From a virus (lineage: Duplodnaviria; Caudoviricetes), in IMG/VR virus record IMGVR_UViG_3300021197_001961, positions 1 through 59,055 of that record: a DNA stretch of 59,055 nucleotides; one strand, given 5' to 3'. This document shows, one piece after another, positions 36,533 through 54,736 of the stretch. Below the pieces are notes generated by a model. It was not told where the DNA came from and searched no databases. It saw only the letters and a list, made by a program, of their open reading frames with translations. The translations under genes were made by a program, and so were the position numbers. Numbering within the stretch: position 1 is the stretch's first letter; every line of letters begins with the position of its first letter.

Positions 36533-37504
36533 TTAAATTTCAGACTTTACTTTTTCTAAATCTTCTTCATACATCATTCTCGCTAAGCCTTCAAAGTTAA
36601 TTTTTGGAGACCAATCGAGTTTTTGTTTTGCTTTAGTTGAACTACCGAGCAGCAAAGGAACCTCGTGGGGTCTAAACAATCTGCTGTCGATTCTCACATA
36701 ATCCCTAACATCTAGGTCAGCGATTTTAAAAACTAAATTAAGAAACTCCCTGACTGTGTGGGTTTCTCCGGTCGCAATAACATAGTCATCTGGGTTATCC
36801 TGTTGCAACATAAGCCACATAGCCTCAACGTAGTCACCAGCAAAACCCCAGTCACGCTTAGCTTCAAGGTTTCCTAGGTAAAGCTTTTCTTGCAGCCCCA
36901 ATTTTATCCGGGCGGCTGCTAGGGTAATCTTTCTGGTAACAAAGGTCTCACCTCGGCGGGGAGACTCGTGATTAAACAAAATGCCAGAAGAGGCGTGTAG
37001 ATTATAAGATTCACGATAGTTTCTCACAAGGTTGTGCGCGAAAGTCTTTGCGCAGGCATACGGAGATGCTGGCATTAAACGAGTATTTTCATCTTGAGGG
37101 TAGTTTGGATTGTCTCCGAACATTTCTGATGATGATGCTTGGTAGAACCTTGCGTTTGGGGTGACATGGCGAGCAGCCTCTAAAAGCCTCAAAGTTCCCA
37201 TAGCAATTCCGTCAACTGTGGATTCGCCTACCTCAAAAGATACCCTAACGTGAGATTGAGCTGCAAGATTATAAATTTCGTCGGGCTTGTATTCCTGCAG
37301 AAGCCGCCACATACAGCCTGCATCATTTAGTTCAAAATATCTTAATTCAAAGTTCTCATGATCGTAGAATCCATTAATCCTATCTGTGCAGATTAAAGAA
37401 GTTCTCCTCTTTAGACCAATGACCTTGTAGCCCTTATTTAGCAAAAGCTCTGCTAAATACGATCCGTCTTGACCTGTAACTCCAGTTATAAACGCAGTTT
37501 TCAT
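36533..37504 (-). CDS. gmd: GDP-mannose 4,6-dehydratase
   Basis: [65 protein letters not shown] overlap at 37504. Confidence 0.96.
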
Positions 37505-38400
37505 TTGTTCTCCAAGTACCAATTATACGTCTTTTTGATGCCATCTTTAAATTTTGTAAAGTTATATTTTCCAGTCATTTCAATAAGAGCTTTATTGCTA
37601 CCATCTTTTCGATGCTGACCTTCGTAGGATCCGTTAAAAAAGAATTTAACGTCCTTGTTTAAAGATTCTCTAGCAGCATAAGCCATCTCTTTAATTGATA
37701 AATTCTCGTTATTTGCCACAATTAAAGGTATCTCTGTATTGTGCCTTTCCAACAATACCGGAATCAATTCACACAAGTCATCAATGTACAACTGTTGGCG
37801 TAAAGGTGCTCCAGAGCCCCACAGCTCAATTGTGTTTCCGTCATCTGCTTCCGAGATCTTTCGGATTAAAGACGCTACAAAATGAGATGATTCTGGGTCA
37901 TAGTTGTCAGATGGACCATATAAATTAGAAGGACAAAAACTAGAATAATTCAACCCATACTGTTCCCTATATGCAACTGTTTGAGCATGCAAGGCTCTCT
38001 TTGTTATACCATAAGAAAAATTTGTTCTAGCGGGGGGACCGTTGAACAATTCGCTTTCACTAAACGGATACTGACTAACCTGATCTGGGAATGCACAAGT
38101 GCTTAGAGAGCTAAGCACCCTTGGGACGCCTAAGATTGAACTTATATGAATTACATTTGTATTCATCATCGTATTTTGAAAAAAATACTCTGCTTGATTA
38201 TTGGCATTATCTTTAATACCCCCAACCCTAGCAGCCAAGTGAATGATCGCGGAAGGCTTGTGAGAAGAAAAGAACTCTAGAGACTCCTTGAAATCAAGCA
38301 AATTGCAGTCTCTTGAGGAAAGGTATAGCCAATTTGGCTTCACCTTCTTAAGCCTAGTTCCTAGAAAGCCTGTGCCTCCTGTGACTAATACCTCAGCCAT
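37501..38400 (-). CDS. fcl: GDP-L-fucose synthase (GDP-4-keto-6-deoxymannose epimerase/reductase)
   Basis: [57 protein letters not shown]. Adjacent to gmd. Confidence 0.88.
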
Positions 38401-38983
38401 CTGCACCCTTTCGAAGGGGAGAACCACTCATTCTTCTCTTCTCTTGGTCGATTGAAGGGCAGTGATTTCCCGTGCGGTGAATTAGGTCATAAAACAACAT
38501 CATACAAGCTACCTCAACTGTGTGGAAATAATCGCAGTTAAGAGACACCTCATCAACCGAATCCCTTAGAACCCTAGAGTGTTGACCACTTATCATAAAG
38601 GTACTCCAGCCCCTATCTTGTGCCCAGTGAAGTGCGTCGATGACATTCCCAGAGTTTCCCGAGCAAGACATTCCAACAACCAAGCATTCATCTGGGTTTT
38701 CAAAATTTGCCATTGTTTCAAGCCAGCGAACAAAGATCATACCATAACCATGGTCGTTGGCATTGGAAGTTATAAATCCAACACTATCAAATGAATGCAC
38801 AGCCTTGTCGGGTATCAATCTAGATAAGTCTGTTGCCATATGGCTAGATACATAATGCAAACCACCATTTCCAATTAGAAAGATCCTCTTTGCATTTCTT
38901 ACCTTTTCGCAAAGTCGTTCATACTCCTCTGTCGCGACGGCTGTATTGCATTTTTCCTCTATATTTTCAAAATCAATTAACAT
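38393..38983 (-). CDS. SIS-domain sugar-phosphate isomerase, GmhA-like (divergent), 196 aa
   Basis: IFLIGNGG..SSHMATDL, TSNANDHGY..IF, GMSCSGNSGNV. The C-terminal GmhA QExH motif is altered (TVEVACMMLFY). Confidence 0.8.
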   Translation of the reverse strand: MLIDFENIEEKCNTAVATEEYERLCEKVRNAKRIFLIGNGGLHYVSSHMATDLSRLIPDKAVHSFDSVGFITSNANDHGYGMIFVRWLETMANFENPDECLVVGMSCSGNSGNVIDALHWAQDRGWSTFMISGQHSRVLRDSVDEVSLNCDYFHTVEVACMMLFYDLIHRTGNHCPSIDQEKRRMSGSPLRKGADG

Positions 38984-38987: not shown

Positions 38988-40157
38988 TTACCTCTTTCTG
39001 ATTGATTGCTTTATTATTTCAACGGCATTGCACAATTCACTATGTGTTAGAGCTAGATTGGGTCTTAGCCTCACGGCTGTAGATCCAGCTACATTGCATA
39101 TAAGACCGTTCCTTTTCATCTCCTGCAGAGTGTTGTCTCTAGCTGATGCAGATGGCAAATCAAAGCCAACGATCAATCCCTTATTTCTTAAGTTGTGTAT
39201 GTTTTTAATTTTTGACAACTCACTAATAAGCTCATTTGCCATATTGTTTACATTTTCTAGTATATCATATTTTTTGTATGCTTTTATTATGTATTTACAC
39301 CTAATCATATCCAAGACATCAGCATCCCAAGTAACTTCAAGCTTGGTTCGCCTTTCTTTAGAGAAGATCTCTCCAAACTTCTCCTTGACCATAATTCCTG
39401 ATAGTTGGGTCTTCTTTCCGAATACAACTAAATCTGGCTGCAACCCTAGATGTTCAAAATGCCACAATTTTCCTGTTCCGCCAAAGCCAATTTGTATCTC
39501 GTCATGTATTACTGGAATGTTATGAAGATTTGCTGTCTCCTGAAGGTCTCGAAAGAATTCAACTTTATGGTGTATATCGCCAGAACTACATTGTATAGGT
39601 TCCACCAAAATACAGGTGATATTATTGTCGCGGACAGCCTCAAGAACCTGTTGTAAATTCATATCTATTTTAATAGAAAAAGGTTGTGGCAGGTTTTCTA
39701 GCTTCTTGCTTGCAGGATAAAATTTAGACGTAGTGAATCCACCATATCCGTTAACTCCGTGAAAGCTGTTGTTAAACGATAGAACCTTTATGTTTTGATG
39801 CCCTTTGTGCTCAGCGCAGGTCTTAATAGCCGCCTCAACTGCCAGAGCCCCCGTGCAAGAGTAGTGAAAAAACTTATAAATTCCCTTTCCGGCGTATTTT
39901 TTAAAAAGATCGTCAAACTCCAATGTTTCGTCTGAAACGAATTCACAATTATTTATTTTGAAACTACTCGCTCTTAAGATCTCATCACGAAATTCTTGTG
40001 TCTTAAAGATACCATGATTATACCCGAGGGGTAGAGAGGCGTACATACCAAAGAAATCCAAATACTCTCTATCTGTGTTTTTATCATAAAGGTATGAGTC
40101 GTGGCTCTTCTCAAAATCAACACATATGTTAAACCTGCTGTTGTTGGCGATTCCCAT
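38988..40157 (-). CDS. Class III PLP aminotransferase, L-lysine 6-transaminase-like, 389 aa
   Basis: EYLDFFGMYASLPLGYNH, GALAVEAAIK, SFHG, VEPIQ, HDEIQIGFGGTG, PDLVVFGKKTQ (PLP lysine), RLRPNL. Confidence 0.85.
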   Translation of the reverse strand: MGIANNSRFNICVDFEKSHDSYLYDKNTDREYLDFFGMYASLPLGYNHGIFKTQEFRDEILRASSFKINNCEFVSDETLEFDDLFKKYAGKGIYKFFHYSCTGALAVEAAIKTCAEHKGHQNIKVLSFNNSFHGVNGYGGFTTSKFYPASKKLENLPQPFSIKIDMNLQQVLEAVRDNNITCILVEPIQCSSGDIHHKVEFFRDLQETANLHNIPVIHDEIQIGFGGTGKLWHFEHLGLQPDLVVFGKKTQLSGIMVKEKFGEIFSKERRTKLEVTWDADVLDMIRCKYIIKAYKKYDILENVNNMANELISELSKIKNIHNLRNKGLIVGFDLPSASARDNTLQEMKRNGLICNVAGSTAVRLRPNLALTHSELCNAVEIIKQSIRKR

Positions 40158-41200
40158 TATTTCTCCATATATTCTTTGATAAAGTTCTTTATCATGTCCA
40201 GATCATCAATTCTAGTAACTCTCATATCTCCCGCCCCATAAGGAAGAATACAAACCAGTGAATCATCAATGTTTTTCTTATCCCTAGCTAGCAGGGCAAA
40301 ATATCCCTGGAGCAAGTCTTGGGGCAGGCGGTATGTTGGCAGATTATGTTTCAAAGACTGGTGCAGTGTATCAAACACCTGTTTATCAATAAGCCCCATC
40401 CTTAATGAAATATAGTTTGCTAAGTCCATACCCAATGTTACTGCAATACCATGACTAATCTCATATTTGGTTATCGCTTCGATGGCGTGACCAAAGGTAT
40501 GCCCATAATTAAAAATTCGTCGCTCGTCTTTATCAAATTCATCTCTCTGTATCATATGCCTCTTTATTTCAAGGCTTTCAAGAATAAATTTTTCTAACCT
40601 AACATCTGGCTCCATTAAGATTTTTTTATATGAGTTGTTTAGTTCCTGCACTATATCACTGTCATCGATAAGAAAGTAATGCAACATCTCTCCAATGCCT
40701 GATTTGATATCGTCCTTACTTAAGGTGCTTAAAAAATCTGTGCAACAGTGAATCTCCCTGGGTGGGTGGAACGTTCCTAATAAATTCTTTGTTCCCTGAA
40801 AATTTATAGAGGTTTTGCTTCCTATACAACTATCCGCTTGGGCTAGAAGGGTTGTTGGCAAGAAAGTCCAATCTACACCCCGATAAAGCACAGAGGCGGT
40901 GAAAGCTGTAATATCTTGAACTATACCGCCGCCTACGGCGACTAGCCTATGGTTTCTTTTAAAACCCTTCTCTACTAGCAGGTTAACCAATCCGCTACAT
41001 GTCTTCAGCGTTTTAGCCTCTTCAGAAGCCATTACAACGAAAGTATTATCACTAGAAAACATCCTGCCAAAGATGGGATACAACCTATAGACATTCGAGT
41101 CAATCACCAAAAAAGATTTACTAGCCAAGCTTCCTACGAGCTTCTCGGTTAGATCAGAGAATTGAAATGTGTATTCCCCTCTATAAGAATGTATCTTCAT
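40157..41200 (-). CDS. 3-dehydroquinate synthase-family (AroB-related) sugar-phosphate cyclase, 347 aa
   Basis: VGGGIVQDI, RGVDW..PTTLLAQADSCIGSKTSIN..KNLLGTF, RRIFNYGHTFGHAIEA, SHGIAV. No other shikimate genes are present. Confidence 0.88.
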   Translation of the reverse strand: MKIHSYRGEYTFQFSDLTEKLVGSLASKSFLVIDSNVYRLYPIFGRMFSSDNTFVVMASEEAKTLKTCSGLVNLLVEKGFKRNHRLVAVGGGIVQDITAFTASVLYRGVDWTFLPTTLLAQADSCIGSKTSINFQGTKNLLGTFHPPREIHCCTDFLSTLSKDDIKSGIGEMLHYFLIDDSDIVQELNNSYKKILMEPDVRLEKFILESLEIKRHMIQRDEFDKDERRIFNYGHTFGHAIEAITKYEISHGIAVTLGMDLANYISLRMGLIDKQVFDTLHQSLKHNLPTYRLPQDLLQGYFALLARDKKNIDDSLVCILPYGAGDMRVTRIDDLDMIKNFIKEYMEK

Positions 41201-41201: not shown

Positions 41202-41924
41202 TTATATGCTTACGAAACCTCCGTCGACTACTATATTTTGCCCTGATATATAGGAATTGTGCTCACTTGCTAGAAACAGAATGACTTTAGAAATTTCTTC
41301 TGGTTCTGCCATTCTTTTAGCTGGAATCTTGTGGGTCAGCTCTTGTATCTTTTCGGTTGTTAGAATCTTCTTTGTTAAATCTGTTAGAGTAAACCCCGGA
41401 GACACTGTGTTGATCAGTACGTTGTATTCTGCCAGCTCTGCTGCTGCTGCCAAGGACATTCCACGTAAACCAAACTTGCTAGATGAATAGCTGGCGCGCT
41501 GGGGTGTGCTTATGGTGCCCCAAATGGAAGAGACGTTGATTACCCTACCATACATCTTAGCTATCATAGATTTGCTTACCGCTTGCTGGATAAGGAACGG
41601 CACAGTTAGGTTTACTCTTATTATGTCTTCCCAGTCGCCTATGTCAATCTCGCAGAAGGGATCTATTTTATTGATCCCGGCGTTGTTTACACAAATATCA
41701 AATTGTTGTGTCTTCAGATATTTAATAAACTTATCAGTTGCATCCTGATTGAGAAAATTAACAGCTATAAATTCTATATTCTTGTGAAGATGGGCGGGCG
41801 ACGAGGACGTCCCCGTTATAACGACCTCTGCACCAAGATTAGCCATGTCGTTAGCTACCTGATAGCCAATGCCGCGGGTGCCACCTGTTACCAAAACCCG
41901 CTTGTTTTTAAAATCAACTTTCAC
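41202..41924 (-). CDS. Classical SDR oxidoreductase (FabG-like), 240 aa
   Basis: VTGGTRGIG, VNNAGI, SS..YSSSK, VSPGF, GQNIVVDGG. GTG start. Confidence 0.9.
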   Translation of the reverse strand: MKVDFKNKRVLVTGGTRGIGYQVANDMANLGAEVVITGTSSSPAHLHKNIEFIAVNFLNQDATDKFIKYLKTQQFDICVNNAGINKIDPFCEIDIGDWEDIIRVNLTVPFLIQQAVSKSMIAKMYGRVINVSSIWGTISTPQRASYSSSKFGLRGMSLAAAAELAEYNVLINTVSPGFTLTDLTKKILTTEKIQELTHKIPAKRMAEPEEISKVILFLASEHNSYISGQNIVVDGGFVSI

Positions 41925-41927: not shown

Positions 41928-43064
41928 TTATTCCTTATAGATGTGTGGAACGTCTTCTCTGCTGACAGCCAATCTAATAGCTGGCTTGTCGCCAACAGCT
42001 GTAATATGATGCATCTTTCCTTTTGGTATAAAGACAATATCATCTTTGCCCACGATGACTTTCTTGCCTTCGATATCCCATTCCCACTGCCCATCAACGA
42101 TATACCACCACTCATTCCAGTTTGGGTGATAGTGGTTCCTATTGCCTTCGCCGGGTTGCTGGTGTATCAGCGTTGCGCTATTGTTTTCGGTATTAACAAC
42201 TCTCTTTGACCAAGAAGCTTTAGGGTCAAAGCTAGAGATAATATTGTTGACGTTCACGGGGGTTTCACTATTGGCGGAGGCGAGGTCATTGACCAACACA
42301 CCATCCATCTTCAGAATGCTGGGAACATCTACCTCGACGCGCTCGGCTGTATCTTCATAATACCTAATATCAAATTTTTCTTTTGTGCTCAAATGCCGCG
42401 CGACGACCTCTGCTAGTTGAAAATCTTCCTCATTATCAATATCTATATTAGAGTATCCAGATAAAGTATAGAATCCAATGTTTCCGTCTCCTCCATGATA
42501 GCCGCTGTTGTATTTAGCCATGTTGTCTTTATAGTTTTGGCTTGACCAAGCCATCAGACCGCAGGCATATGCGTTAACTGGCGTGAGTAGCTGAGATGGT
42601 GGTGATTGCCTCTTTTGATCGAAATTTATTGGCTCAGTGCCGTATATGCATTCTATCTTATTTTCGTTAACGGATATAAGCGTATCATATCCACCCTGCA
42701 TAAAATGATCGGTAAAGCCTCTTATTTCCTCCGGTGTGATAAACGGGGACGTTGCCAGCACTTGAACAAGGTTATCACACCCGGTGCTCTCAACAAAGTC
42801 CAGTGTAAAATCATCGTTTGTTGCGTCATCTGTGGTAAGGTGCTCAGATCTTTTGTAGAACTTCACACCCTCTTTGATAGCAAGTTCACCGATAATATCT
42901 GATTCTGAGTTAACATAGATCTCATCAAAACAGTCAGCGCTTTTGGCTGCTCTTATGATATAACTTATCAGCGGAACGTTGTTTAATAATCTTATGTTTT
43001 TTCTTGGTATGCGCTTGCTTCCCAGACGAGCTGGGATCATTGCGACTACTTTTTGCTTTTTCAC
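41928..43064 (-). CDS. Acylneuraminate (NeuA/KdsB-family) cytidylyltransferase fused to a C-terminal cupin, 378 aa
   Basis: IPARLGSKRIPRKNIRLL, ATSPF and IDIDNEEDFQLAE define the CMP-ulosonate synthetase domain. HYHPNWNEWWYIVDG...FIPKGKMHHI is an intact cupin metal motif. Confidence 0.88.
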   Translation of the reverse strand: MKKQKVVAMIPARLGSKRIPRKNIRLLNNVPLISYIIRAAKSADCFDEIYVNSESDIIGELAIKEGVKFYKRSEHLTTDDATNDDFTLDFVESTGCDNLVQVLATSPFITPEEIRGFTDHFMQGGYDTLISVNENKIECIYGTEPINFDQKRQSPPSQLLTPVNAYACGLMAWSSQNYKDNMAKYNSGYHGGDGNIGFYTLSGYSNIDIDNEEDFQLAEVVARHLSTKEKFDIRYYEDTAERVEVDVPSILKMDGVLVNDLASANSETPVNVNNIISSFDPKASWSKRVVNTENNSATLIHQQPGEGNRNHYHPNWNEWWYIVDGQWEWDIEGKKVIVGKDDIVFIPKGKMHHITAVGDKPAIRLAVSREDVPHIYKE

Positions 43065-44113
43065 TTTTTAGTCTCTTCAACCCATTTTACAGAATCTTGA
43101 AAATTTTCAATCAGGTAATCGTCAAGCGTCAGCTTTCTTAAATAATGATACTTGATCATTCTATGAAAATAATCAATCTGAGGCTCTTGTTGGTGGATGT
43201 CCATTCTCAAAGAGTCGGGGGTTGGTTGCCTATCCTCTGTTGTTGAGAAACCATTCTGCTTCAGTGCCTCATCATGATATTTATTATAATATACTTTTCC
43301 GAAAGTGTTCATGTTAAAAAAGGACATTCCGGTTACGTAAACCTCTTCAATATCATAATTTAAGAGGGTCATTACTCCTGTTAGTCCCGTGTTAACAACA
43401 GTGCCCACCTCGTTAAACAGTTTTAACACCCACCCATCACAAGCATTGTGCCAAGGTCTTCCCGTGCTTTCTAAAAAATCATCAACGCGACCAATATCCC
43501 ACATGGAGACTTGAGGGCAAACAATATACTGAAGAGCTTCCAAGAAACTTATTTCGTATGGAGGTTCCCTCACATCTCTAGTTTCCTCAAGGGCTTTGAG
43601 TTTGTTTATATTTAAACAGCTCATCAAAATATCTGTTCTTCTACCATAATCCTCCCAATCCTCCTCGCTCATATGATAATTTTGGTTAACTCTGACCACT
43701 AGATCATATGAGTCTATTTTTTTACCCATTTTCTTGCCACGAAGGTGTGGTGATGGGCACACATAGGCTATCCTCTTTCCCTTTACCAATTCAGCGAGTT
43801 GCTCATCGTAATTGTAATCTGTGTAGTTACTAACAAGGGTTCTGTCCGCAGCCATCCTAGTGCCAGAAAATTGCCTTAGTTGCGCAAAAGATTGCTCTGG
43901 TGGAGGGGAGGATGACCTCCACCTTGGCGTGTTTGCTTGAATTGGGATTCCAAAAATGTCAGGCTTCGTATCCAAGTACCAATTTGCCATATACCTATAA
44001 TCTTTCTCTCGTTTATATTCTGTTTTATTATTTTTTAAAAAATTTGCAGCCAAATTGTTAAAGTTATCATATTCATAGTCCTGTTTGGACGTCATCATTC
44101 CCGGCTTTTTCAC
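43061..44113 (-). CDS. GT29-like (sialylmotif-containing) glycosyltransferase, 350 aa
   Basis: KRIAYVCPSPHLRGKKMGKKIDSYDLVVRVN...EDYGRRTD resembles sialylmotif L. NTGLTGVMTLLNYDIEEVYVTGMSFF resembles motif S. YY..Y and IHQQEPQ resemble motifs III/VS. Overlaps the cytidylyltransferase gene. Confidence 0.7.
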   Translation of the reverse strand: MKKPGMMTSKQDYEYDNFNNLAANFLKNNKTEYKREKDYRYMANWYLDTKPDIFGIPIQANTPRWRSSSPPPEQSFAQLRQFSGTRMAADRTLVSNYTDYNYDEQLAELVKGKRIAYVCPSPHLRGKKMGKKIDSYDLVVRVNQNYHMSEEDWEDYGRRTDILMSCLNINKLKALEETRDVREPPYEISFLEALQYIVCPQVSMWDIGRVDDFLESTGRPWHNACDGWVLKLFNEVGTVVNTGLTGVMTLLNYDIEEVYVTGMSFFNMNTFGKVYYNKYHDEALKQNGFSTTEDRQPTPDSLRMDIHQQEPQIDYFHRMIKYHYLRKLTLDDYLIENFQDSVKWVEETKK

Positions 44114-44127: not shown

Positions 44128-45846
44128 TTATTGAATCAGTGGCAACGTTACTTTACTTTCGTATTTTATGTCGCCCTCATCGGCGTCAGCATCATATGAT
44201 ATTGAATTAATTCTCTCTTCATATTGCTTAAGCTTGATGTTATCCGCCTTCACTTGATTATCATATGCTTCCATAAATCTCTTTTTTTCTTTGATATTAA
44301 AAAATTCGGCATATTGCTTAAACAACGCTTTAATAATAAATTTTTCAGTTGTCTTCGAGATCTGAGGGAGCATGTTTTTTGGCTCCTTTTGCAGAGCATT
44401 CTGCACAATCTTAGACACTAGTCCAGTGGAGTTTATAGCTTCTCCCATTATCTCAAGGAATCCGCTCAAGTGGTGAAGATCTGAATATCGTAAGATTTCT
44501 GGCATCAGCTTTCTCTGAGCAAGGAAACCGTCCGGAGTAAAGAACTTAGTCAGTGAAATACTTTGCCTAATTTCCTCTTTCCACTCAAATAATTGATCAT
44601 ACGAGTGGGCGCCTCCATTTTCAGTTGTATAATATGGCACTCCCTTGTCTGTAAGCCAGTAATCATCATCGATCTTACCAGTTGCCTTAGCCATCGTATA
44701 CATTTCAGTACCAGGATAAATCATTGCCAAGCCCATTTCATCATAAAAGATATAGTGAAGCTTCTGTAGTTCCTGAACAAAGTCTATTGTTTCTTTAATC
44801 GTCTCCTGCGTTTCGCCAGGAAGACCAGAGATTAGGAAGGCTGTTGCTTTGATTTTAGTTTTGGCGATCAACGAGAGGGCATAGCGAGCGTGCTCTTTTG
44901 TGATACCCTTCTTCATACCCTTCTGAACTGCATCAGCACCACTCTCCAAGCCAAACAAAACGTGAACAAACCCAGCTTGCTCCATTTTATTGACAACCTC
45001 TGGGGATATTGGTCTAAATCTAGCGCTAGCAACAAACTTTGTTTTAATCCCTCGCTCTATGATCGCATCACAAAATTCAATAGTTCTCTTCTTGTTGATC
45101 ATAAACGCATCATCGTGAATCCATATGGTATCTACAGTTGGACACTGCTCTAGCAATTGTTCAACCTCATCGGCAATATTCTCTCCTGATCGAAATCGCA
45201 CTTTGCGACGTGACATCGCATCGAGAACACAAAAATTACACTTATAGGGGCAGCCGCGACTTGTTAAAAGGTTCGCCATAGTTTTTCCCTCATACAGAAA
45301 TATATCGTGACGAGGAAATGGTAGCATATCCAAATCTTTAATCAAAGGGCGTCCTCCGGTAAATTTAACCTTGTTATCCTTCCAATAGGCAAGACCCAGA
45401 ACGTCTTCGTGAGATTCTCCAGATTCAAAGCAGCTAATCAATTCATTAAAGGTAACCTCCCCTTCGCCTTGAACCACAATGACGTAAGGGTATTTTTCCA
45501 CAAACTGCTTCCACATAACAGTAACGTGCATTCCGCCGGTTACAATCTTGATATTCGGATATGTTTCGTGAACATATTCAATAATTCTATATGCACTCAC
45601 ACGAGAGTGAGTCATTAAAGACACCCCAAGCACGTCAGGTTGAAATCTTTCGAGACTTTCTTTAATTTCTGAAAAGCATTGCTCGTAGGGCACGTTATTC
45701 AAATATAAGTTTTCGAATTCGTGCTGCGGGCTCTGTTGCTCAACATAGGATTGTAGATAAGCCAGTCCTAGTGGATAGTGACTATCGTGGTTGTCCTCGC
45801 TTCGGTGAGCATCTTCAATGGTTGTGCAGCAAAGTAAAATCTTCAT
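44128..45846 (-). CDS. Cobalamin-binding radical SAM enzyme (class B methyltransferase-like), 572 aa
   Basis: N-terminal B12 domain (YPLGLAYL, PDVLGVS, VTGGMHVT, QGEGE), then TSRGCPYKCNFC (CxxxCxxC), FGLESG, GLPGET, YPGT. Confidence 0.92.
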   Translation of the reverse strand: MKILLCCTTIEDAHRSEDNHDSHYPLGLAYLQSYVEQQSPQHEFENLYLNNVPYEQCFSEIKESLERFQPDVLGVSLMTHSRVSAYRIIEYVHETYPNIKIVTGGMHVTVMWKQFVEKYPYVIVVQGEGEVTFNELISCFESGESHEDVLGLAYWKDNKVKFTGGRPLIKDLDMLPFPRHDIFLYEGKTMANLLTSRGCPYKCNFCVLDAMSRRKVRFRSGENIADEVEQLLEQCPTVDTIWIHDDAFMINKKRTIEFCDAIIERGIKTKFVASARFRPISPEVVNKMEQAGFVHVLFGLESGADAVQKGMKKGITKEHARYALSLIAKTKIKATAFLISGLPGETQETIKETIDFVQELQKLHYIFYDEMGLAMIYPGTEMYTMAKATGKIDDDYWLTDKGVPYYTTENGGAHSYDQLFEWKEEIRQSISLTKFFTPDGFLAQRKLMPEILRYSDLHHLSGFLEIMGEAINSTGLVSKIVQNALQKEPKNMLPQISKTTEKFIIKALFKQYAEFFNIKEKKRFMEAYDNQVKADNIKLKQYEERINSISYDADADEGDIKYESKVTLPLIQ

Positions 45847-48156: not shown

Positions 48157-48974
48157 TTTTGTATTCCTCCTTCAACACCTAAAAGGTCCAAGTTTAAACC
48201 TTGCAACCCCTGGCTATTACCCGTGTAGGGTTTACCATTATTTGGATTCTCTATGATAACATCATTTTTACTTTTTGTGAAATTTTTAACCATTATTGCA
48301 ATATCATGGAGAGTTATTTTTTGATCATAACACACGTTGATATCCTTGGGCAATTCCCTGTCAGAAGATAGATAAAATTTCAATATACGGCAAAGATCGC
48401 CCACAAAGATATAATCCATCTCTTTGTTCTGATGAATGAAAGCATCCTGTCCGGACATTAGCTTAGTATAACAACTCTTAATAAGTCTTTGAGGGTTTTC
48501 ACGAGGTCCAAAGCACCCAAATAGCCGAAAATTAACTATATTTTGATAATTATCAAAAATATTTCTAGCAATTAGATTCTTCACAAGACCATAATAATCT
48601 TGCGGAAGTCTTTCAAATAACTCTTCTTCTGACACTTTGTCTATCACACCTGAACGATCAAACTCCGCGCCGGATCCAAAATTAATCATGAGTTTGAACT
48701 TATCAGAGTGCGATGCGAGGTTCTGAAACATTGAGATATTTTCAAAGAATGCAGATATATCATCCTTATCTAACCGCTTTCCACCATTAATCGCAGTATG
48801 AACGACGTAGTCTATGCGGTTCTCCGAAAAAAAGTTATCCACCTGTTGGCGGTCGGACACATCTAATGTGCTTCTGTTTGTGGAGATAATCTCAAACTTA
48901 TTGCTTTTTTTAAATTCGGAGTAGATCTCTCTGGCGATAAAGCCGTTACCTCCGGTCAACAATATTCTTTCCAC
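48123..48974 (-). CDS. NAD-dependent epimerase/dehydratase/reductase (extended SDR), ~283 aa
   Basis: ILLTGGNGFIA, FGSGAEFD, YGLVK, RLFGCFGP. GTG start at 48974 overlaps the upstream TAG. Confidence 0.85.
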   Translation of the reverse strand: MERILLTGGNGFIAREIYSEFKKSNKFEIISTNRSTLDVSDRQQVDNFFSENRIDYVVHTAINGGKRLDKDDISAFFENISMFQNLASHSDKFKLMINFGSGAEFDRSGVIDKVSEEELFERLPQDYYGLVKNLIARNIFDNYQNIVNFRLFGCFGPRENPQRLIKSCYTKLMSGQDAFIHQNKEMDYIFVGDLCRILKFYLSSDRELPKDINVCYDQKITLHDIAIMVKNFTKSKNDVIIENPNNGKPYTGNSQGLQGLNLDLLGVEGGIQKCLTLWSRSKS

Positions 48975-49450
48975 TATCGCACCAAGTTTAGGTAGGAGGG
49001 TTTGCCGTTTTCCACAAGAGTGTCCAAGATACATCTAAGCTCCTCTTCCTGCTCTGGATGGTACACGTCAATGTTATCGAAGCAGTCCATAATTCTTCGA
49101 TCGTCCTCAGCCCAGTGGGTGAACCCAAGTTTCCCGTAGTCTCTATCCCTACCACCGCCGATAAGCTTGACGGGAATTTGTTCGTGATCCAGATAATTTC
49201 TAATAAATTCAAAGGGTCGATATAGAAGGAACGGGGTTATAGAATACACAAATGGGATCTTGCCTTCCATAGCCATACCGCTGGCTGCGCCAAGCATAAG
49301 TTGCTCGGAGGAGCCTACGTTCCGAAAGCGTCTTGGAAAGTCTAATCGAATTTTGTCCCACAATCCATATCCCAGATCACCGGTTAAGACCACGATGCGA
49401 GGATCAACACTCATCTTCTCGTGTAATAACTGACTAAATGCTTTTCTCAC
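48974..49450 (-). CDS. Transketolase-like pyrimidine-binding subunit (short, ~158 aa, lacks C-terminal domain)
   Basis: LTGDLGYG, RFRNVGSSEQLMLGAASGMAMEG, RPFEFIRN, LGFTHWAEDD. GTG at 49450 with SD GGAGG. Confidence 0.85.
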   Translation of the reverse strand: MRKAFSQLLHEKMSVDPRIVVLTGDLGYGLWDKIRLDFPRRFRNVGSSEQLMLGAASGMAMEGKIPFVYSITPFLLYRPFEFIRNYLDHEQIPVKLIGGGRDRDYGKLGFTHWAEDDRRIMDCFDNIDVYHPEQEEELRCILDTLVENGKPSYLNLVR

Positions 49451-50084
49451 TTGCGTCCTCCAACATTGATACCGCTTGTTTGTAGTCATGCTCTTTCATA
49501 ATATGATAATGTGCGTTTAAGCCTCGTAAGAATGGGAAATGATTAACATCGCTGTGTAAGATATTCACACCCGGTAGGAATGCGCGAAGACGTCTTTCTA
49601 GATACTGTTCGTCAACAGCGTCATATGCTGCATACCCGTTGAGGTTGGCGTATATTCGAATGTTCTCCACCCTATTCTCGTGAATGAACTTTAAGGACTC
49701 CCACACAACGCCCTCGGCGCTCTCGCCATCGCTAATCAGACAATGAACCGTTACATCAGGGCGCGCTAATGCTCTGCCAACGGCTACTGAGATACCCATT
49801 CCGAGACTACCAGTGGAGCAATAGATCTTATCGTTGTCGTCCCTGTGAGGGTGTCCGCCATGCTTATTAAACAAGTATTCAGCATCGATGCCGTGGTATT
49901 TTTCTAATACAGCATAGAGTGCTAGCGCGGCGTGTCCACAAGAGAGGATAAATATGTCATCGTCGCCCATAACTGAAAAAATGTTATCGACTATATCCAA
50001 ACAAGAGAAATAACTTCCCAAGTGAGACAAGTTGTTCTTATAAGCAATGTCGAGGACCCTTCGCTTGAGTATTAAGTCTTCCAT
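49434..50084 (-). CDS. Transketolase-like thiamine diphosphate-binding subunit, 216 aa
   Basis: SHLGSYFS, FILSCGHA, GGHP, STGSLGMG, LISDGESAEGVVWES...NLNG (GDG-X-N type ThDP motif), NAHY. Confidence 0.88.
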   Translation of the reverse strand: MEDLILKRRVLDIAYKNNLSHLGSYFSCLDIVDNIFSVMGDDDIFILSCGHAALALYAVLEKYHGIDAEYLFNKHGGHPHRDDNDKIYCSTGSLGMGISVAVGRALARPDVTVHCLISDGESAEGVVWESLKFIHENRVENIRIYANLNGYAAYDAVDEQYLERRLRAFLPGVNILHSDVNHFPFLRGLNAHYHIMKEHDYKQAVSMLEDASEKSI

Positions 50085-50806
50085 TTAGTTCCCCAGTGTT
50101 CTTGTATCATAGCATCGTAATTAATTTGCTCTTTTTGAACTTTCCAGGTTGCTTGGTCTTCGTGCCAGCGATAATAGAATCCTAGCCAGAAAGGCGCCGG
50201 ATATATAAACACCCCGCTGTCGGCTAGTTGGCAATACAGATCATAGTCGGCAGCGCCGCCATATTTCTCTGGGTTTGTCTTTAACAAACCATCCCTAAAA
50301 AGAGAAGTGTTGTACATGACTGTTGGAGTGTTTACCGGGCACCTCTCTAGGCACTCCTCCTTGAATTCTTGTATGCTCTTGTAAGAATGGGCTATTGTGC
50401 TCGTGACTCTACCAGTATTCGAATGTATGCCCGTTATTGGACTTTGCATGGCAAGAATATCACTTGGTCTTGCTTTGAAGAACTTCATATTATTTGCAAT
50501 AAAGTCTTTATGCAGAAAGTCGTCAGAACCCATCACCAGCACATAGTCCCCCGTCATTAGCTTGAAACCTTGAGACCGAGGCTCATCCCAACAATTGGGA
50601 TACACATTCTTCGCAGACGACAAGATAAGGTCTGGGTATTCTTCTTTTACTTTCTCTGCGATTGCCACACTATTGTCGGTGCTCTCATTATCAACAAAAA
50701 TAACCTCAGTGTTATCATATGTTTGTGATAAAGCTGTGACTAATGCTTGTTCAATCCACTTCTCACTATTGTAGCACGGAATGATTATTGAAGCTCTAGG
50801 ATTCAT
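50072..50806 (-). CDS. Glycosyltransferase family 2 (GT-A), 244 aa
   Basis: SIIIPCYN, QTY, VDNESTDNS, GDYVLVMGSDD, AADYDLY, YYRWH. Confidence 0.9.
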   Translation of the reverse strand: MNPRASIIIPCYNSEKWIEQALVTALSQTYDNTEVIFVDNESTDNSVAIAEKVKEEYPDLILSSAKNVYPNCWDEPRSQGFKLMTGDYVLVMGSDDFLHKDFIANNMKFFKARPSDILAMQSPITGIHSNTGRVTSTIAHSYKSIQEFKEECLERCPVNTPTVMYNTSLFRDGLLKTNPEKYGGAADYDLYCQLADSGVFIYPAPFWLGFYYRWHEDQATWKVQKEQINYDAMIQEHWGTKWKT

Positions 50807-51710
50807 TATTTAAACTCAACATTGTCTTTACTCTTTCGATGTAGGTGTGTTTAGATAATATATTTTCACGATTCTTAGCCTTGGCTCCCAACAAAAGACT
50901 ATCTGGTTGGACACAAATCTCTTTGGTTATTTTCAACATTTCTTTTGGATTAGTTGCTAGGGGAACATTCGGAAATAAGCCCTTTAGGCATTCGACATTA
51001 TCTGAAACAAGTATACCACACAGACCTAGAGATTTAAATGTGCGTTCATTCGTATCTACACCTAGGTTATGTTGATATGCGTCATGGATGTTCAGTGCTA
51101 CCTTGCTCAAGGATAGTAGGCTGTTCTCTTTTTCGTGTGATATACCCTGATTGACGGCAAACCCACACCTTAGCCCCGAACCCTTGAATACAGATAGGTA
51201 ATCTATGATTATTTTCTTTTTTTCGTCAAATCCATTGTTTGCCCAGCCGCCCACGTAACACACATCAAAAGAATACTTATCTTTACTTAAGTCCTTATAA
51301 TTTTCTGAATCGTATGCCAGTGGGATATAGTGAACATCGTCCCATTCTTTGTAAAAATTGGTTTTTGCAGCGTCCACAAAAGACCATTTAAATATGTTAG
51401 TTAAGCTATTGATACGAAGAGTTAGATCTCTTGGCACCTGAGAGATAAAATTAGGATGACTACCCCAGGGCATTGGGAATGTGTGCGGCTGCACAAATAA
51501 GTATGCGCGCGAGGCGTTTTCTAAAATCTTGACATGCTCCTCAGACCTTATATCGTGGTCGATAGCCATTATTTGATAGTCTTCATCTTTGATATCAGAT
51601 AAGTTGTTGTATAGAACTGCCTCGTGCCCTAAAGATTCCCAGGCAGATTTATACCCTCTATAAATCCACTTGCCGGCGGCAAATGGGTGGTCCTTAATAT
51701 AAACCCTCAT
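50796..51710 (-). CDS. CgeB-like GT-B glycosyltransferase, 304 aa
   Basis: YIPLAYD, YSFDVCYVGG, SKVALNIH, NERTFKSLGLCG, HTYIERVKTML. Confidence 0.78.
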   Translation of the reverse strand: MRVYIKDHPFAAGKWIYRGYKSAWESLGHEAVLYNNLSDIKDEDYQIMAIDHDIRSEEHVKILENASRAYLFVQPHTFPMPWGSHPNFISQVPRDLTLRINSLTNIFKWSFVDAAKTNFYKEWDDVHYIPLAYDSENYKDLSKDKYSFDVCYVGGWANNGFDEKKKIIIDYLSVFKGSGLRCGFAVNQGISHEKENSLLSLSKVALNIHDAYQHNLGVDTNERTFKSLGLCGILVSDNVECLKGLFPNVPLATNPKEMLKITKEICVQPDSLLLGAKAKNRENILSKHTYIERVKTMLSLNNES

Positions 51711-52630
51711 TTATAAATTTGCTCAATAGTTTTTGACAGCCGAACTCTGGATTGATGGTCCTTGCAAAACCTTCTGTGTCCATTGTCTGCTAGCTTTTGA
51801 GCTACATTGGTATTCTTGAGAAGATACTTTATTTTATTGATCATCTCTGTTTCATTCTTGAAGCACACTATTTCTTTATCAAGAGTGAAGTAGTCCTCTA
51901 TACCTGGGACATACTCTGTAACTAGGAGAGATTTAGATGCCACAATCTCAAACATTCTGCCCTTCATTTGCGGCTGCATGTTCGCAGCGTTTTTGCTAAA
52001 GTTCAACCCTATTAGCGAGGAGGCATAAGAATAAGCCAGATCTTCAAACCCAACATTCTTTGGGCGCAAAACAGGTATGCTTGCAGATTCCAATGCGTTT
52101 AAAAACATAAGACGATCGCCGGATGGGGCTCCGATAAAAGATGTACGTGGTTGCTTTAGGGTTGGTATTGAGCCATAAAAATCTAAATTGGCGTGCCACG
52201 TAGCATCGATGATATTGTCATAACCAATTTCTTGATATTTCTCTACAAATCTTTTTTCCGGAGTGGAACAGGCGTGAAATAAGTGGCAAACTTTCTTAGA
52301 AAATGATTCAAATCTCCAAGAATCATCACAAAACCAGTTGAAGGTTTTAAGGCGACCTTTCTGTGTTTCTAGGGCAATCGTCTCCCACGGCTCTCTTGGG
52401 GCATAGTTTGCGTCTCCCGTCATAATACAAAAAAGAAGATCGGGCTTCTTGCCTTCGATCTCCTCTTTTAATTCCTTGTCACCCAAAATAGATGTATCAA
52501 AGAACGTTACATTATGCCCTAAAGATACAAGAGGAAAATAAAAATTCCAGAATGCATAGTCAAATCTGAAACCGTTGTCAGACTGCTTGTGGTCTGAAAT
52601 ACTCTTCGGAGCAACAAGGAAGATGTTCAT
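51707..52630 (-). CDS. CgeB-like GT-B glycosyltransferase, 307 aa
   Basis: NWFCDDSWRF, SFIG, SLIGLNFS, KGRMFEIVAS, EDYF..DKEIV.F, IKYLL..A.NGHRR..KDH...RL. Confidence 0.82.
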   Translation of the reverse strand: MNIFLVAPKSISDHKQSDNGFRFDYAFWNFYFPLVSLGHNVTFFDTSILGDKELKEEIEGKKPDLLFCIMTGDANYAPREPWETIALETQKGRLKTFNWFCDDSWRFESFSKKVCHLFHACSTPEKRFVEKYQEIGYDNIIDATWHANLDFYGSIPTLKQPRTSFIGAPSGDRLMFLNALESASIPVLRPKNVGFEDLAYSYASSLIGLNFSKNAANMQPQMKGRMFEIVASKSLLVTEYVPGIEDYFTLDKEIVCFKNETEMINKIKYLLKNTNVAQKLADNGHRRFCKDHQSRVRLSKTIEQIYK

Positions 52631-53472
52631 TACAGTTCAAGCGCCTTTTTTATCATATCAGGGATATCTTTTCTCTTCCGAACCATAACTTCTATTAGGT
52701 CCTCTCCTCGTAATTTAAACCATTCCTCTTTTGAGGCGCCCACAAGATTGTTTGTTATGACCGTCATATCCATCATTCTTGCTTCCACAACTATTCGAGA
52801 AAGTGTCTCTGGTGTTTTCGGAAAAAATACCAAAGATTCGTTATTCCCTAAACGTCTTAAGAAATCCCTATAAGGTAGACTAGGAATTAATTCATACTCT
52901 AGACTTTTTGCCTTACAATACATAATTGAGTCGGTTGTGTTCTTATGTGGTATGCTTGATTGCATTATAGAGCATCTACCTACCTTCTTTATATTTGACA
53001 TTTCCTTCAGCAAAGAAAGATCATCGGCTGACCACAGATTTCCTCCGAGACTTATAATGTTATCAATTTGAAGGTTCTTGTATACTATATTTTTGTGAAA
53101 CGTAGACTGACACAAAACAGCGGAAGCAGATTTATAAAACTGTCTGTTTATTATCTCATCTGGGGGAGCCTTAAACTGTGGGTAAGTTGCCGGGTTTCTG
53201 CTTTTTAAGTATTTGTGGTCATGTTCGTAAATGACATATTTTTCACTAGCTAATGCCGACTTAACTTGTTGGCTTAGATTGACAAAATTGGCAATAATAA
53301 ATACAGAGCCCTTAAAATTGTTAACTATTTGCTGACTTATTAAGTGACTTTGAAATCTATGTACCTTATATCCCTGAAGTGTTAATATGTTGATGAACTC
53401 TTCATTGTTGATTTCTCCGCCGCCCAAAATATGCTCGACGAAGAAATCAGCTACGAATACTACATTAGTCAT
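52630..53472 (-). CDS. Putative GT-B glycosyltransferase (divergent), ~280 aa
   Basis: GGGEINN N-terminal loop, YEHDHKY, LVFFPKTPETLSRIVVEARMM (E-x7-E GT4-like motif). Embedded among other GT genes. Confidence 0.7.
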   Translation of the reverse strand: MTNVVFVADFFVEHILGGGEINNEEFINILTLQGYKVHRFQSHLISQQIVNNFKGSVFIIANFVNLSQQVKSALASEKYVIYEHDHKYLKSRNPATYPQFKAPPDEIINRQFYKSASAVLCQSTFHKNIVYKNLQIDNIISLGGNLWSADDLSLLKEMSNIKKVGRCSIMQSSIPHKNTTDSIMYCKAKSLEYELIPSLPYRDFLRRLGNNESLVFFPKTPETLSRIVVEARMMDMTVITNNLVGASKEEWFKLRGEDLIEVMVRKRKDIPDMIKKALEL

Positions 53473-54736
53473 GGGTCTCAACGTCTAGGTTTGAGAGCCA
53501 ATCTTCGACGTCAAATTCTTCCCTTTTGTAGACTGCTTCGCAAAATTCAGAATACTTTACCTCAGCAGTAAAGTTTTTCTCCAAGTGTGACCTTAGAGTC
53601 TTAGCCATCCCCTTAAAGCGATTAACGTCTTTATACATTTCTCTCAGGCGATTCTTATAGCTTGCCTCTTTTGCATAACACCATTGAGAGTCGGCATCTA
53701 AGACGTTCTCCCAAACTGATTCTGGCATAATTGGCTTCATTTCATACTCTACAGTCGAAAAGAAAGGTGCGATCTTGGTTGTTGTCTTCTTATTCTTCTT
53801 CTTGACCTTCTTGGGAGCGTGAAGGAAATCTTTATGCCCACTCCAGTTTGGGGCGATTATCGGCATCTCATTATAGGCAGCTTCAAAAAGTGGCAATCCA
53901 AATCCCTCACCATGCGTGAGGGACACCATACATTTTATTTTCGGATTCGTGTAAAGAGAAGTCATCTCCTCATTGGTCATATATCCGTGAAGCAGGTAGA
54001 CCTTGCATGTTCTGTTATCATACTCTCGCAAAATATTTCGAAGCCTTGAGATTGTGATGTCACGGTCAATCGAAGAATTTTTAAACAAATTGGTTTTGAC
54101 AACCAACCCAACTGGATCATCTTTGAATTCCTCAATCCACCAACGAATTGTGTTTTCTAGATTCTTTCGAGGTCCCCACTGGGACACAGTGAGGAAATTG
54201 AAATCATAGTCGAGTGAAATATCTATAGGTGCAGCCTTATATTTTCTTACAGGATAATGCACCACATCTACCGGAGTTTCGCACTTGTAGAGAAAGGTAT
54301 CGCCACCGTTGTCCGGGGTTGCTTCATACACAGTATCCACGAATGTATCCCTAGAGTGATTAGAGATCGTAATAATCTTATCCATAAGCCGACTTTTCTC
54401 AATCCAAAGACCAGAGATCTTTGTGCTCTCTATGCCGGCAGTGTAACCAATATTAATCGGAGTCAACTTTTCCCACTCATTTGGAATTGTAACTTGAAGT
54501 GACATATCAAAACTACCACCGTTATGAAGATGAAGTCCTGTTTTTCGAATTAGATTGTCGATCCAATCTCTGTCTGGATCATTTGGTAGTAACCAACTGC
54601 TGTTGCCCCAGTTTGTTGGCTTCAAATAAACATCAAATCTATCTGACTCAGACATTAGCGACCTGAGTGCAAAGCGGCACTGCTCGCCATATCCAGTTTG
54701 TGATAGCGCTGGACCTACAACTATAATCTTTCTCAT
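53465..54736 (-). CDS. Glycosyltransferase family 4 (GT-B), ~423 aa
   Basis: SQTGYG, QWGPRKN, SLTHGEGFGLPLFEAAYNEMPIIAPNWSGHKDF. ATGA overlap at 54736. Confidence 0.88.
   Translation of the reverse strand: MRKIIVVGPALSQTGYGEQCRFALRSLMSESDRFDVYLKPTNWGNSSWLLPNDPDRDWIDNLIRKTGLHLHNGGSFDMSLQVTIPNEWEKLTPINIGYTAGIESTKISGLWIEKSRLMDKIITISNHSRDTFVDTVYEATPDNGGDTFLYKCETPVDVVHYPVRKYKAAPIDISLDYDFNFLTVSQWGPRKNLENTIRWWIEEFKDDPVGLVVKTNLFKNSSIDRDITISRLRNILREYDNRTCKVYLLHGYMTNEEMTSLYTNPKIKCMVSLTHGEGFGLPLFEAAYNEMPIIAPNWSGHKDFLHAPKKVKKKNKKTTTKIAPFFSTVEYEMKPIMPESVWENVLDADSQWCYAKEASYKNRLREMYKDVNRFKGMAKTLRSHLEKNFTAEVKYSEFCEAVYKREEFDVEDWLSNLDVETHD

Follow-up and report, generated by a model that had tools for sequence, protein, structure and literature searches.

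The GT29-like transferase and its overlapping partner

The viral record IMGVR_UViG_3300021197_001961 of IMG/VR, all 59,055 bases of which were analyzed here (hereafter the window), is linear, spans the complete record and has an estimated completeness of 33%. It codes for baseplate wedge proteins, a gp25-like protein, very large structural open reading frames (ORFs), and PhoH, and is a piece of an uncultured myovirus-type phage (Caudoviricetes). The minus strand holds every gene of its glycan region, including the pair that is the subject of this work, namely a gene for a soluble relative of the sialyltransferases of glycosyltransferase (GT) family 29 and an overlapping gene for a cytidylyltransferase fused to a cupin domain:

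43061..44113, minus strand: soluble GT29-like (sialyltransferase-fold) glycosyltransferase, 350 amino acids (aa), GTG start, recognized by PF00777 and by fold searches
41928..43064, minus strand: cytidylyltransferase-cupin ORF, 378 aa, GTG start
42390..43064, minus strand: cytidylyltransferase domain, CTP_transf_3 (NeuA/KdsB/PseF family), approximately residues 1-225 of the 378-aa ORF
41928..42200, minus strand: metal-binding cupin domain at the C-terminus, approximately residues 289-370 plus the stop codon (Cupin_2, E 4.6e-16)

Both ORFs lie where an earlier note on this DNA had placed them, and the peptides that it had quoted as sialylmotifs are found in the translation of the first, viz., an L-like block IAYVCPSPHLRGKKMGKKIDSYDLVVRVN...DYGRRTD, an S-like block NTGLTGVMTLLNYDIEEVYVTGM, and a His within DIHQQEPQ. 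The L-like block spans residues 113-161 and the S-like block residues 237-265, with an invariant His307 beyond them, and residues 1-41 form an N-terminal extension that most homologs lack. The lack of a signal anchor, likewise claimed there, is borne out by maximal 19-residue Kyte-Doolittle means of 0.97 over the whole protein and 0.06 over its first 60 residues. The PF00777 hidden Markov model (HMM) recognizes the protein at 25.6 bits (E 9.8e-6), above the curated threshold of 23, and is its sole Pfam family at E<=0.01. A profile of the family run against the PDB recovers GT29 sialyltransferases as all of its best eight matches (best E 3.8e-4), followed by two weak matches to OmpA (E 0.47 and 0.88), and HMMER aligns motif L to residues 93-143 of ST3Gal-I and residues 67-156 of ST6Gal-I.

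In a family alignment of 39 sequences reaching down to 35% identity, K113, P120, L124, G130, D134, D137, and R141 of the L-like block and G237, G243, L251, Y253, G262, and F265 of the S-like block are invariant, as is the single His307, with Y279 also being conserved. The S-like block has no Cys and hence none for an L-S disulfide. Judged by order and spacing against the usual motif definitions, the S-like block and His307 are likely equivalent to the motifs S and VS. One could read the protein as inactive as a transferase, for example, as a binder or hydrolase of sugar nucleotides, and the recognition of only the CMP-binding motif L by sequence models would sit well with such a role. We give this very little credence, because conservation in the 39 sequences extends over the whole domain, including the invariant His at its expected place, and because the family is large and its gene stays beside that of the cytidylyltransferase across distant phages and bacteria.

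The AlphaFold2 model of the putative transferase has a predicted local distance difference test score (pLDDT) of 86.4 and a predicted template modeling score (pTM) of 0.84, with only residues 1-33 poorly predicted. Foldseek searches of the PDB with this model return GT29 structures for all 30 matches at E<=1e-3 (best E 2.3e-7), and the GT42 enzymes CstII and CstI appear from E 1.3e-3 onward. VIA-align, which is independent of Foldseek, places ST3Gal-I (Z 13.1), ST6GalNAc-II (12.7), ST6Gal-I (12.4), and ST8Sia-III (11.1) at the top, followed by an MptE-like kinase (9.5), CstI (9.2), SteA (8.5), and Maf (8.0), after which scores drop to 5.1. Since both searches rank GT29 first, the prediction of a GT29/GT42 sialyltransferase fold, nearer to GT29 than to GT42, stands; the earlier note would have been refuted by the lack of a predicted fold of this kind, which is not the outcome. 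Membership in GT42 itself (CstII-type) was considered and rejected: there is no Pfam match other than PF00777, and the GT42 fold match is real yet second to GT29.

Coupling to a cytidylyltransferase with a fused cupin

The overlap of the two genes, noted before, measures 4 bases (GTGA) and brings the GTG start of the cytidylyltransferase over the TGA stop of the GT29-like gene. Likewise, the assignment of the second gene to the NeuA family of cytidylyltransferases holds at the level of the family (CTP_transf_3, PF02348; E 8.6e-20, 71.9 bits against a cutoff of 22.6), but its fused cupin had gone unnoticed. Among the NCBIfam models, PseF matches best, with 83.5 bits over residues 7-221, under its cutoff of 205.7, and the best KdsB model is weaker (49.8 bits against a cutoff of 255).

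The His-x-His...Glu and second His of the cupin are invariant in 21/21 homologs, and its AlphaFold2 model has a pLDDT of 91.6. The domain is optional, being absent from the homologs in loci L012, L013, and L134. A fold search for its function produced no winner, as more than 50 small cupins score at Z 10-13.4, among them KdgF, archaeal PMI, and the cupin domain of CapF; a role as an isomerase or anomerase is possible, with no test result pointing there.

To place the pair in a wider context we examined 100 loci with GT29-like genes, 69 viral and 31 cellular. A cytidylyltransferase homolog is present in 55 of the 69 viral loci; of the 27 in which both genes can be placed, 26 have them no more than 2 kb apart. 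It is found in 15 of the 31 cellular loci, typically about 1.4 kb upstream, with NeuB nearby in four. Thus, the coupling of the GT29-like gene to a cytidylyltransferase is general.

A large clade of phages and bacteria

A word-indexed search recovered 103 homologs of the GT29-like protein, nearly all of them marine metagenomic and mostly 270-300 aa long, with a precomputed PF00777 match in 74. An exhaustive search yielded 997 clusters at E<=1e-3, with 25 at E<=1e-30. The label 'eukaryote-type' that the protein had been given is therefore misleading: it belongs to a large prokaryote and phage clade comprising these 997 clusters, and bacterial GT29-like proteins were published in 2018. There are also natural fusions of the GT29-like domain, to a GT25 domain (P0091) and to a GT2 domain (P0092).

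Close relatives (>=40% identity) occur almost only on viral contigs; just two of the 31 cellular loci are close, both on short contigs of metagenome-assembled genomes (MAGs). One of the two is L070, whose MAG is labeled Thaumarchaeota; its contig and that of L071, from a MAG labeled Pacearchaeota, carry the entire phage-type island. The GT29-like protein of L070 is nearly identical to that of the viral locus L004 (terminal branch lengths of 0.05 and 0.06), and the L070 and L071 contigs are probably phage contigs binned into MAGs. The true bacterial relatives, among them those from Gillisia, Salegentibacter, and Autumnicola, fall into a clade of their own with good support (SH-aLRT 98) in a quick tree confined to viral and cellular GT29-like proteins, with 67 distinct rows from 83 usable sequences, 17 of the 100 loci having been dropped for short alignments.

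The nearest deposited phages, by a baseplate protein with about 30-32% identity, are the Flavobacterium 'immuto' phages and the Microcystis phage Mel-JY01. In INPHARED neither the window DNA nor the GT29-like protein has a match; the cytidylyltransferase matches a single Moritella record, and the AroB-related protein described below matches ordinary aroB genes only, mostly in bacterial-looking records. As the DNA and protein searches there gave only these matches, the window has no named phage relative in INPHARED. Neither the GT29-like protein nor the cytidylyltransferase has a family in PHROGs.

The sugar-making cassette and its bacterial counterparts

Downstream of the pair lies a set of four further genes, and directly upstream of the GT29-like gene a fifth:

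41202..41924, minus strand: classical short-chain dehydrogenase/reductase (SDR) oxidoreductase, FabG/KduD-like (adh_short_C2, E 7.7e-48)
40157..41200, minus strand: AroB-related enzyme, NCBIfam TIGR04425 'putative sugar phosphate phospholyase (cyclizing)', 417.9 bits against a cutoff of 400
38988..40157, minus strand: class-III (omega-type) pyridoxal phosphate-dependent aminotransferase (Aminotran_3, E 4.2e-58)
38393..38983, minus strand: SIS-domain sugar-phosphate isomerase, distantly GmhA-like (SIS_2, E 3.3e-5, 24.4 bits, below the cutoff of 27)
44128..45846, minus strand: B12-binding radical SAM enzyme (B12-binding E 2.4e-19, Radical_SAM E 1.8e-21; no NCBIfam cutoff reached)

The gene order in most of the close loci, by tblastn synteny, is GT29-like transferase, cytidylyltransferase-cupin, SDR, AroB-related enzyme, class-III aminotransferase, and SIS protein. 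The AroB-related protein was also considered as 3-dehydroquinate synthase (DHQS) AroB itself and rejected, its 274.9 bits to TIGR01357 falling below the equivalog cutoff of 305. Closest to it among solved structures are true DHQS (3clh, E 2e-49), then DOIS (the synthase of 2-deoxy-scyllo-inosose, 5.9e-35), the EEVS ValA (6e-28), and 5tpr (DDGS, 4.6e-22). Compared with the housekeeping AroB of five bacterial genomes, viral and bacterial TIGR04425 proteins retain the AroB motifs D..GxK, KN, GE, K..R..N.GH..GH, HG, and DKK, which in DHQS structures bind the metal and the phosphate and carboxylate of 3-deoxy-heptulosonate phosphate (DAHP) and presumably do so here. They have DSC in place of DSS/DAS and HG[ILVQ] in place of HGE, and in most of them the Lys that follows the metal-binding Glu is replaced by a His. 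Sugar phosphate cyclases have a fingerprint of 14 residues, which the paper that mentions it does not list (eLife, 2015; PMC4426668).

TIGR04425 proteins scoring above the cutoff occur in 14/401 sampled genomes of the phylum of Gillisia and 6/401 of that of Pseudomonas, with none in 14 controls. At 12 such bacterial loci, neighbors were counted by tblastn: an SDR homolog lies beside the TIGR04425 gene in all 12, SIS, 2-hydroxyacid dehydrogenase, and GFO/IDH/MocA oxidoreductase genes are found in 10 each, a cytidylyltransferase in eight, and an HpcH aldolase and DUF386 in seven each; NeuB, the class-III aminotransferase, and the GT29-like gene were found at none of the 12. At L130, which adjoins a flagellin gene, the cytidylyltransferase is also fused to a cupin and is 49% identical to that of the window, and a 638-aa protein gives only sub-threshold matches to surface-carbohydrate and glycosyltransferase models. 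L129 has a weak match to the PF07388 polysialyltransferase family (GT38-like; 25.3 bits against a cutoff of 23.3).

The core of the window's cassette, namely SIS, TIGR04425, SDR, and cytidylyltransferase, recurs in gene clusters for bacterial glycans. A single sugar-making core thus accompanies different candidate transferases, two of them with matches to families of the sialyltransferase type, viz., the GT29-like protein of the phages and the weak GT38-like candidate of L129; this is the best indirect argument for a CMP-activated donor of the ulosonic type.

The aminotransferase has as its best NCBIfam model the L-lysine 6-transaminase family (250.7 bits, below the cutoff of 520.8); with homologs in 25/69 viral loci and none in the bacterial TIGR04425 loci, it is a phage-side addition. 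The SIS protein scores 55.7 bits with the gmhA model, below the cutoff of 209, and has homologs in 45/69 viral loci. The radical SAM gene, which has an RmlB-like gene on its other side, has no homolog by tblastn in the 69 viral loci and appears to be an insertion specific to the window contig. Weak homologs (25-27% identity) are found in the bacterial MAG loci L074 and L076, some 2.3 kb upstream of their GT29-like genes, and also at the TIGR04425 locus L131. The enzyme may tailor the sugar in a cobalamin-dependent step, perhaps a C-methylation; among phages that would be out of the ordinary.

Missing synthases and exchanged cassettes

The window has no match to PF03102 (NeuB) or PF00793 (DAHP_synth_1/KdsA), an absence that, because the record covers only about 33% of the genome, is uninformative for the genome as a whole. 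We therefore tallied synthases over the whole records behind related viral loci, 40 in number and 41 with the window, five of them being >=90% complete. The earlier note's statement that the island has no NeuB/KdsA-type synthase extends to these relatives: NeuB occurs in 2/40 and DAHP_synth_1 in 0/40, with neither in the five near-complete genomes, and an aldolase of the DHDPS/NAL type in 0/41. Two genomes, G007 (98% complete) and G020 (100%, with terminal repeats), have the AroB-type cassette with no NeuB, KdsA, HpcH, or NAL. Thus, the absence of these synthases is a property of the lineage, as covered by the relatives rather than by the unseen part of the window phage's own genome. The same scope applies to the note's caveat that a neuB elsewhere would make this an ordinary nonulosonate pathway: the near-complete relatives have none, and the missing two thirds of the window phage remain unsearched.

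Across the 41 records, TIGR04425-like genes are present in 18 and HpcH in 14, with no overlap, and NeuB in two. These NeuB-type genes are those of L036 and L016, and one of the two records also has an AroB-related gene. At L036, the GT29-like gene and that of a cupin-less cytidylyltransferase are followed by genes for DegT, NeuB (E 3.7e-63), SDRs, and a methyltransferase, a cassette resembling conventional routes to nonulosonic acids. L040 instead has a cytidylyltransferase and a fused GT29-like protein of 636 aa, which at 22.4 bits narrowly misses the PF00777 cutoff, among methyltransferases, a GT2, a HAD-nucleotidyltransferase, a pyruvate aldolase of the HpcH/HpaI type, and an SIS-like protein. 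The cassette labels cluster on the transferase tree, with 16 changes against a mean of 39.3 when shuffled and a value as low in 0/200 shuffles (quick tree).

A further AroB-like gene was seen in G014, the complete 210-kb phage genome with terminal repeats behind locus L021. It lies at 126729-127601, about 74 kb from the GT29-like locus, scores 269.6 bits with TIGR04425, below the cutoff, and may be a true aroB-type auxiliary gene.

A probable CMP-activated acid sugar made without NeuB or KdsA

On balance we consider it fairly probable, if well short of assured, that the soluble GT29-like enzyme transfers a CMP-activated 2-ulosonic-type acid sugar to a glycan and that this sugar is made without NeuB or KdsA. 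Family membership and gene context suggest a CMP-ulosonate as the donor; the ulosonic class is indicated because the same transferase/cytidylyltransferase pair sits with NeuB at L036 and with the pyruvate aldolase at L040. For the acceptor we infer a glycan, either one of the host envelope or one attached to a protein; a sugar chain is suggested by the GT25 and GT2 fusions together with the other glycosyltransferase and GDP- and nucleoside diphosphate (NDP)-sugar genes of the island. The translationally coupled cytidylyltransferase-cupin would activate the acid sugar for the transferase, and the cassette's SIS protein, class-III aminotransferase, TIGR04425 enzyme, and SDR would supply that sugar in the window's phage lineage.

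How they might do so can be sketched tentatively. DAHP is made by hosts with a shikimate pathway. The AroB-related enzyme would take this or a similar host 3-deoxy-ulosonate phosphate through an NAD-dependent oxidation and a beta-elimination of the terminal phosphate, with no closure of a carbocycle. The adjacent SDR would reduce the resulting ketone, which in phages the omega-type aminotransferase could aminate instead. The outcome would be a terminal-deoxy or amino ulosonic acid that is then CMP-activated, following a logic that parallels the 4,6-dehydratase, reductase, and aminotransferase steps of deoxysugar pathways. We propose DAHP because TIGR04425 keeps the AroB motifs presumed to bind it and because DAHP is itself a 3-deoxy-heptulosonate phosphate; still, this particular AroB-related/SDR/aminotransferase route from a phosphorylated 3-deoxy-ulosonate is a possibility that we would not bet on.

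By another account, the transferase and its cytidylyltransferase would use an ordinary acid sugar made by the host (a nonulosonic acid of its own, or Kdo), with the SIS protein, aminotransferase, AroB-related enzyme, and SDR tailoring it (e.g., by a Kdo8N-like amination) or serving another product. The window and the near-complete relatives with the same cassette have no skeleton-forming synthase, and two loci (L001/G001 and L052/G031) retain only the SIS protein, aminotransferase, cytidylyltransferase, and GT29-like transferase, all as would be expected if the skeleton came from the host. A precedent is offered by the Kdo8N of Shewanella, for which Kdo is the starting material and an oxidase from the DHQS/Fe-ADH superfamily acts together with an aminotransferase. 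Against this, the cytidylyltransferase is nearer to the PseF than to the KdsB models (though no cutoff is reached), the AroB-related protein is near AroB and not an oxidase of the Fe-ADH type, and the tight synteny in both phages and bacteria argues for a single pathway. On these grounds we regard the use of an ordinary host sugar as unlikely.

The NCBIfam name of TIGR04425, a cyclizing phospholyase, raises a different prospect, namely that the AroB-related enzyme really does cyclize its substrate, that the resulting aminocyclitol or carbocyclic acid (resembling quinate or valiolone) is CMP-activated on a tertiary hydroxyl, and that the GT29-like protein is a pseudo-glycosyltransferase. The accompanying aminotransferase and dehydrogenases, which in bacteria include GFO/IDH/MocA, inositol-dehydrogenase-like proteins, would be at home in such a pathway, and 3-dehydroquinate is the carba-analog of the pyranose of 3-deoxy-heptulosonate. 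Enzymes of the sialyltransferase fold, however, go through oxocarbenium-like transition states, which are not possible for a saturated carbocycle, and in the relatives this transferase/cytidylyltransferase pair comes with cassettes of the NeuB or pyruvate-aldolase kind, which make true ulosonic acids. A cyclized product is hence quite improbable in our view.

Several observations weigh against the acid-sugar transferase that we favor or against its proposed route. On the transferase itself, the PF00777 alignment covers only residues 116-165 (motif L), i.e., model positions 58-105 of 272, the profile alignments with the PDB are similarly confined to motif L, the likely equivalence of the S-like block and His307 to the motifs S and VS is one of order and spacing, and the Foldseek TM-scores to GT29 are modest (0.31-0.48). 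The cytidylyltransferase falls under every equivalog cutoff in NCBIfam. With respect to the route, the name of TIGR04425 implies cyclization, and a carbocycle would be no obvious glycosyl donor; the SIS protein fits no clear step; HpcH and TIGR04425 occur together in 7/12 bacterial loci and are not simple alternatives there; and 8/41 records (G001, G019, G031, G033, G036, G037, G038, and G040) have no AroB-related, HpcH, or NeuB gene. At one of these loci, L001/G001, only the SIS protein, aminotransferase, cytidylyltransferase-cupin, and GT29-like transferase are present, so that the AroB-related enzyme and SDR are dispensable in some relatives; L052/G031 likewise keeps only these four functions. 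The clustering of cassette labels on the tree could stem from inherited synteny no less than from co-adaptation, and two thirds of the window phage's genome are unseen.

Sialic-acid-like sugars cap cell surfaces and govern recognition by phages, grazers, and immune systems. To our knowledge, all known routes to their CMP-activated forms go through synthases of the NeuB or KdsA type. What our observations add is an enzyme with the fold of animal sialyltransferases, found in abundant uncultured marine phages, that is tied to a conserved and unstudied enzyme set around a relative of a shikimate-pathway enzyme, with the same set recurring in bacterial surface-glycan and flagellin-associated clusters. 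In its widest form, the proposal would be that marine myoviruses and a few percent of the sampled bacterial genomes, from two phyla, make an undescribed CMP-acid sugar independently of NeuB and KdsA by way of an AroB-derived enzyme; this we advance as speculation, rather doubtful as it stands. Were it true, it would enlarge CMP-sugar chemistry with a new family of 'mini sialic acids' and give the orphan family TIGR04425 its first function. Phages would then be swapping AroB-, aldolase-, and NeuB-type sugar cassettes behind one transferase/activator pair, which would offer a direct handle on the diversification of phage and host surface glycans.

The surrounding glycan island

Beyond the genes discussed above, the island has at least six further glycosyltransferase genes plus genes of GDP- and NDP-sugar pathways. 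These bear on one more account of the pair, in which the module modifies phage DNA by hypermodification of bases rather than a glycan. Its point of departure is a figure legend that lists a 'CTP transferase' and a 'DHQS-like' gene on metaviromic contigs with TET and C5-methyltransferase genes (Burke et al., 2021; PMC8256090). The other glycosyltransferases and sugar-nucleotide pathways speak against it, as do the fusions of the GT29-like domain to the glycan transferases GT25 and GT2 and the surface-glycan or flagellin contexts of the bacterial versions; moreover, Tet_JBP was found in 0/31 related viral records and 0/5 near-complete ones, in a search in which no positive control matched. DNA modification thus strikes us as extremely improbable, and we retain the transfer of a CMP-activated acid sugar to a glycan as our interpretation.

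The glycan region behaves like a hypervariable glycan island. A stretch on the minus strand (50072-56016) codes for a GT2, two GT1-like proteins, a 283-aa protein with no Pfam or NCBIfam match, and two GT4 proteins; the GT4 pair and the gene for the 283-aa protein are conserved flanks in related phages, and the genes from there to the GDP-sugar genes vary. Between the island and PhoH, and kept in related phages, are two genes (56020-56790 and 57071-57778, minus strand), one for a protein of the PD-(D/E)XK nuclease family and one for a small protein whose C-terminus resembles a metallopeptidase at a sub-threshold score. The cassette is flanked by genes for a GDP-mannose 4,6-dehydratase and a GDP-fucose-synthase-like reductase (36533-38427, minus strand), which are conserved in most related loci and probably make a GDP-6-deoxyhexose or, given the adjoining GmhA-like SIS gene, a 6-deoxyheptose.

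Another conserved element, present in many related loci, is a split transketolase-like pair (48974-50084, minus strand) with a pyrimidine-binding part of 171 aa and a thiamine diphosphate-binding part of 216 aa, adjoining genes for an RmlB-like dehydratase, a DegT aminotransferase, and an epimerase. The transketolase-like pair may add a two-carbon branch to an NDP-sugar, and together with the RmlB-like and DegT genes it looks like a second, separate unusual sugar pathway of the island. Two giant ORFs on the minus strand amid the baseplate genes, 11628-21158 (3176 aa) and 25099-32382 (2427 aa), are presumably tail-fiber or baseplate-associated structural proteins.

Comparison with known systems

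Our literature search found no mention of TIGR04425, no functional test of that family, no paper on the window's pathway, and no link of DHQS-like enzymes to flagellin or to CMP-sugar pathways. Phage GT29 proteins figure in the literature only in passing, in a soil-phage annotation and as one count in a virome CAZy table, and new CMP-activated ulosonic acids are still turning up in bacteria. A cyanomyovirus with kdsA and kdsB, reported as a first in December 2025, is a different and conventional case (PMC12801897).

The eukaryotic GT29 enzymes, ST3Gal-I (2wnf/2wnb), ST6Gal-I (4js1/4mps), ST8Sia-III (5bo8), and ST6GalNAc-II (6apj/6apl), are the best fold matches of the phage protein, with about 200-215 residues aligned. 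Motif L aligns with theirs by HMM, and the S-like block and single His are ordered and spaced as the usual definitions of motifs S and VS would lead one to expect. In contrast to them, the phage protein, which is 12-21% identical, has no anchor, stem, or Cys in the S-block, lacking both the type II topology and the conserved L-S disulfide of the eukaryotic family, and its setting is that of the phage or bacterial cytoplasm; its donor is probably not Neu5Ac. The GT42 enzymes CstII and CstI of Campylobacter jejuni have the same variant of the GT-A fold and are likewise soluble bacterial enzymes that use CMP-activated nonulosonic acid donors, with CstI being the second-best transferase fold match, weaker than GT29.

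Closer in kind are the 23 GT29-like sequences that Petit et al. (2018; PMC5811610) list from bacteria, among them Alteromonas, Idiomarina, and Loktanella, which are described there as having no transmembrane domain and no conserved Cys pair, as retaining retrievable sialylmotifs, and as basal in the GT29 tree. By this description, on which the comparison is based, they resemble the phage clade in being prokaryotic, marine, anchorless, and devoid of the Cys pair; unlike them, the phage clade is found mostly on viral contigs and is tied to a non-NeuB cassette, and the word 'virus' is absent from that paper.

On the side of donor synthesis, the canonical NeuB/NeuA, PseI/PseF, LegI/LegF, and KdsA/KdsB systems likewise couple a cytidylyltransferase of the same Pfam family to a dedicated transferase, but the window and 38/40 related records have no phosphoenolpyruvate-dependent synthase of this sort, KdsA being present in none. 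The bacterial TIGR04425 clusters, on both the Bacteroidota and the Pseudomonas side, share with the window the AroB-related enzyme, its adjacent SDR, the SIS protein, and the CTP_transf_3 cytidylyltransferase, and differ from it in having, at 10/12 loci each, an extra 2-hydroxyacid dehydrogenase and GFO/IDH/MocA oxidoreductase, often HpcH and DUF386, and other candidate transferases. Set beside these systems, what is new here is a GT29-like transferase in a phage setting together with an uncharacterized donor pathway.

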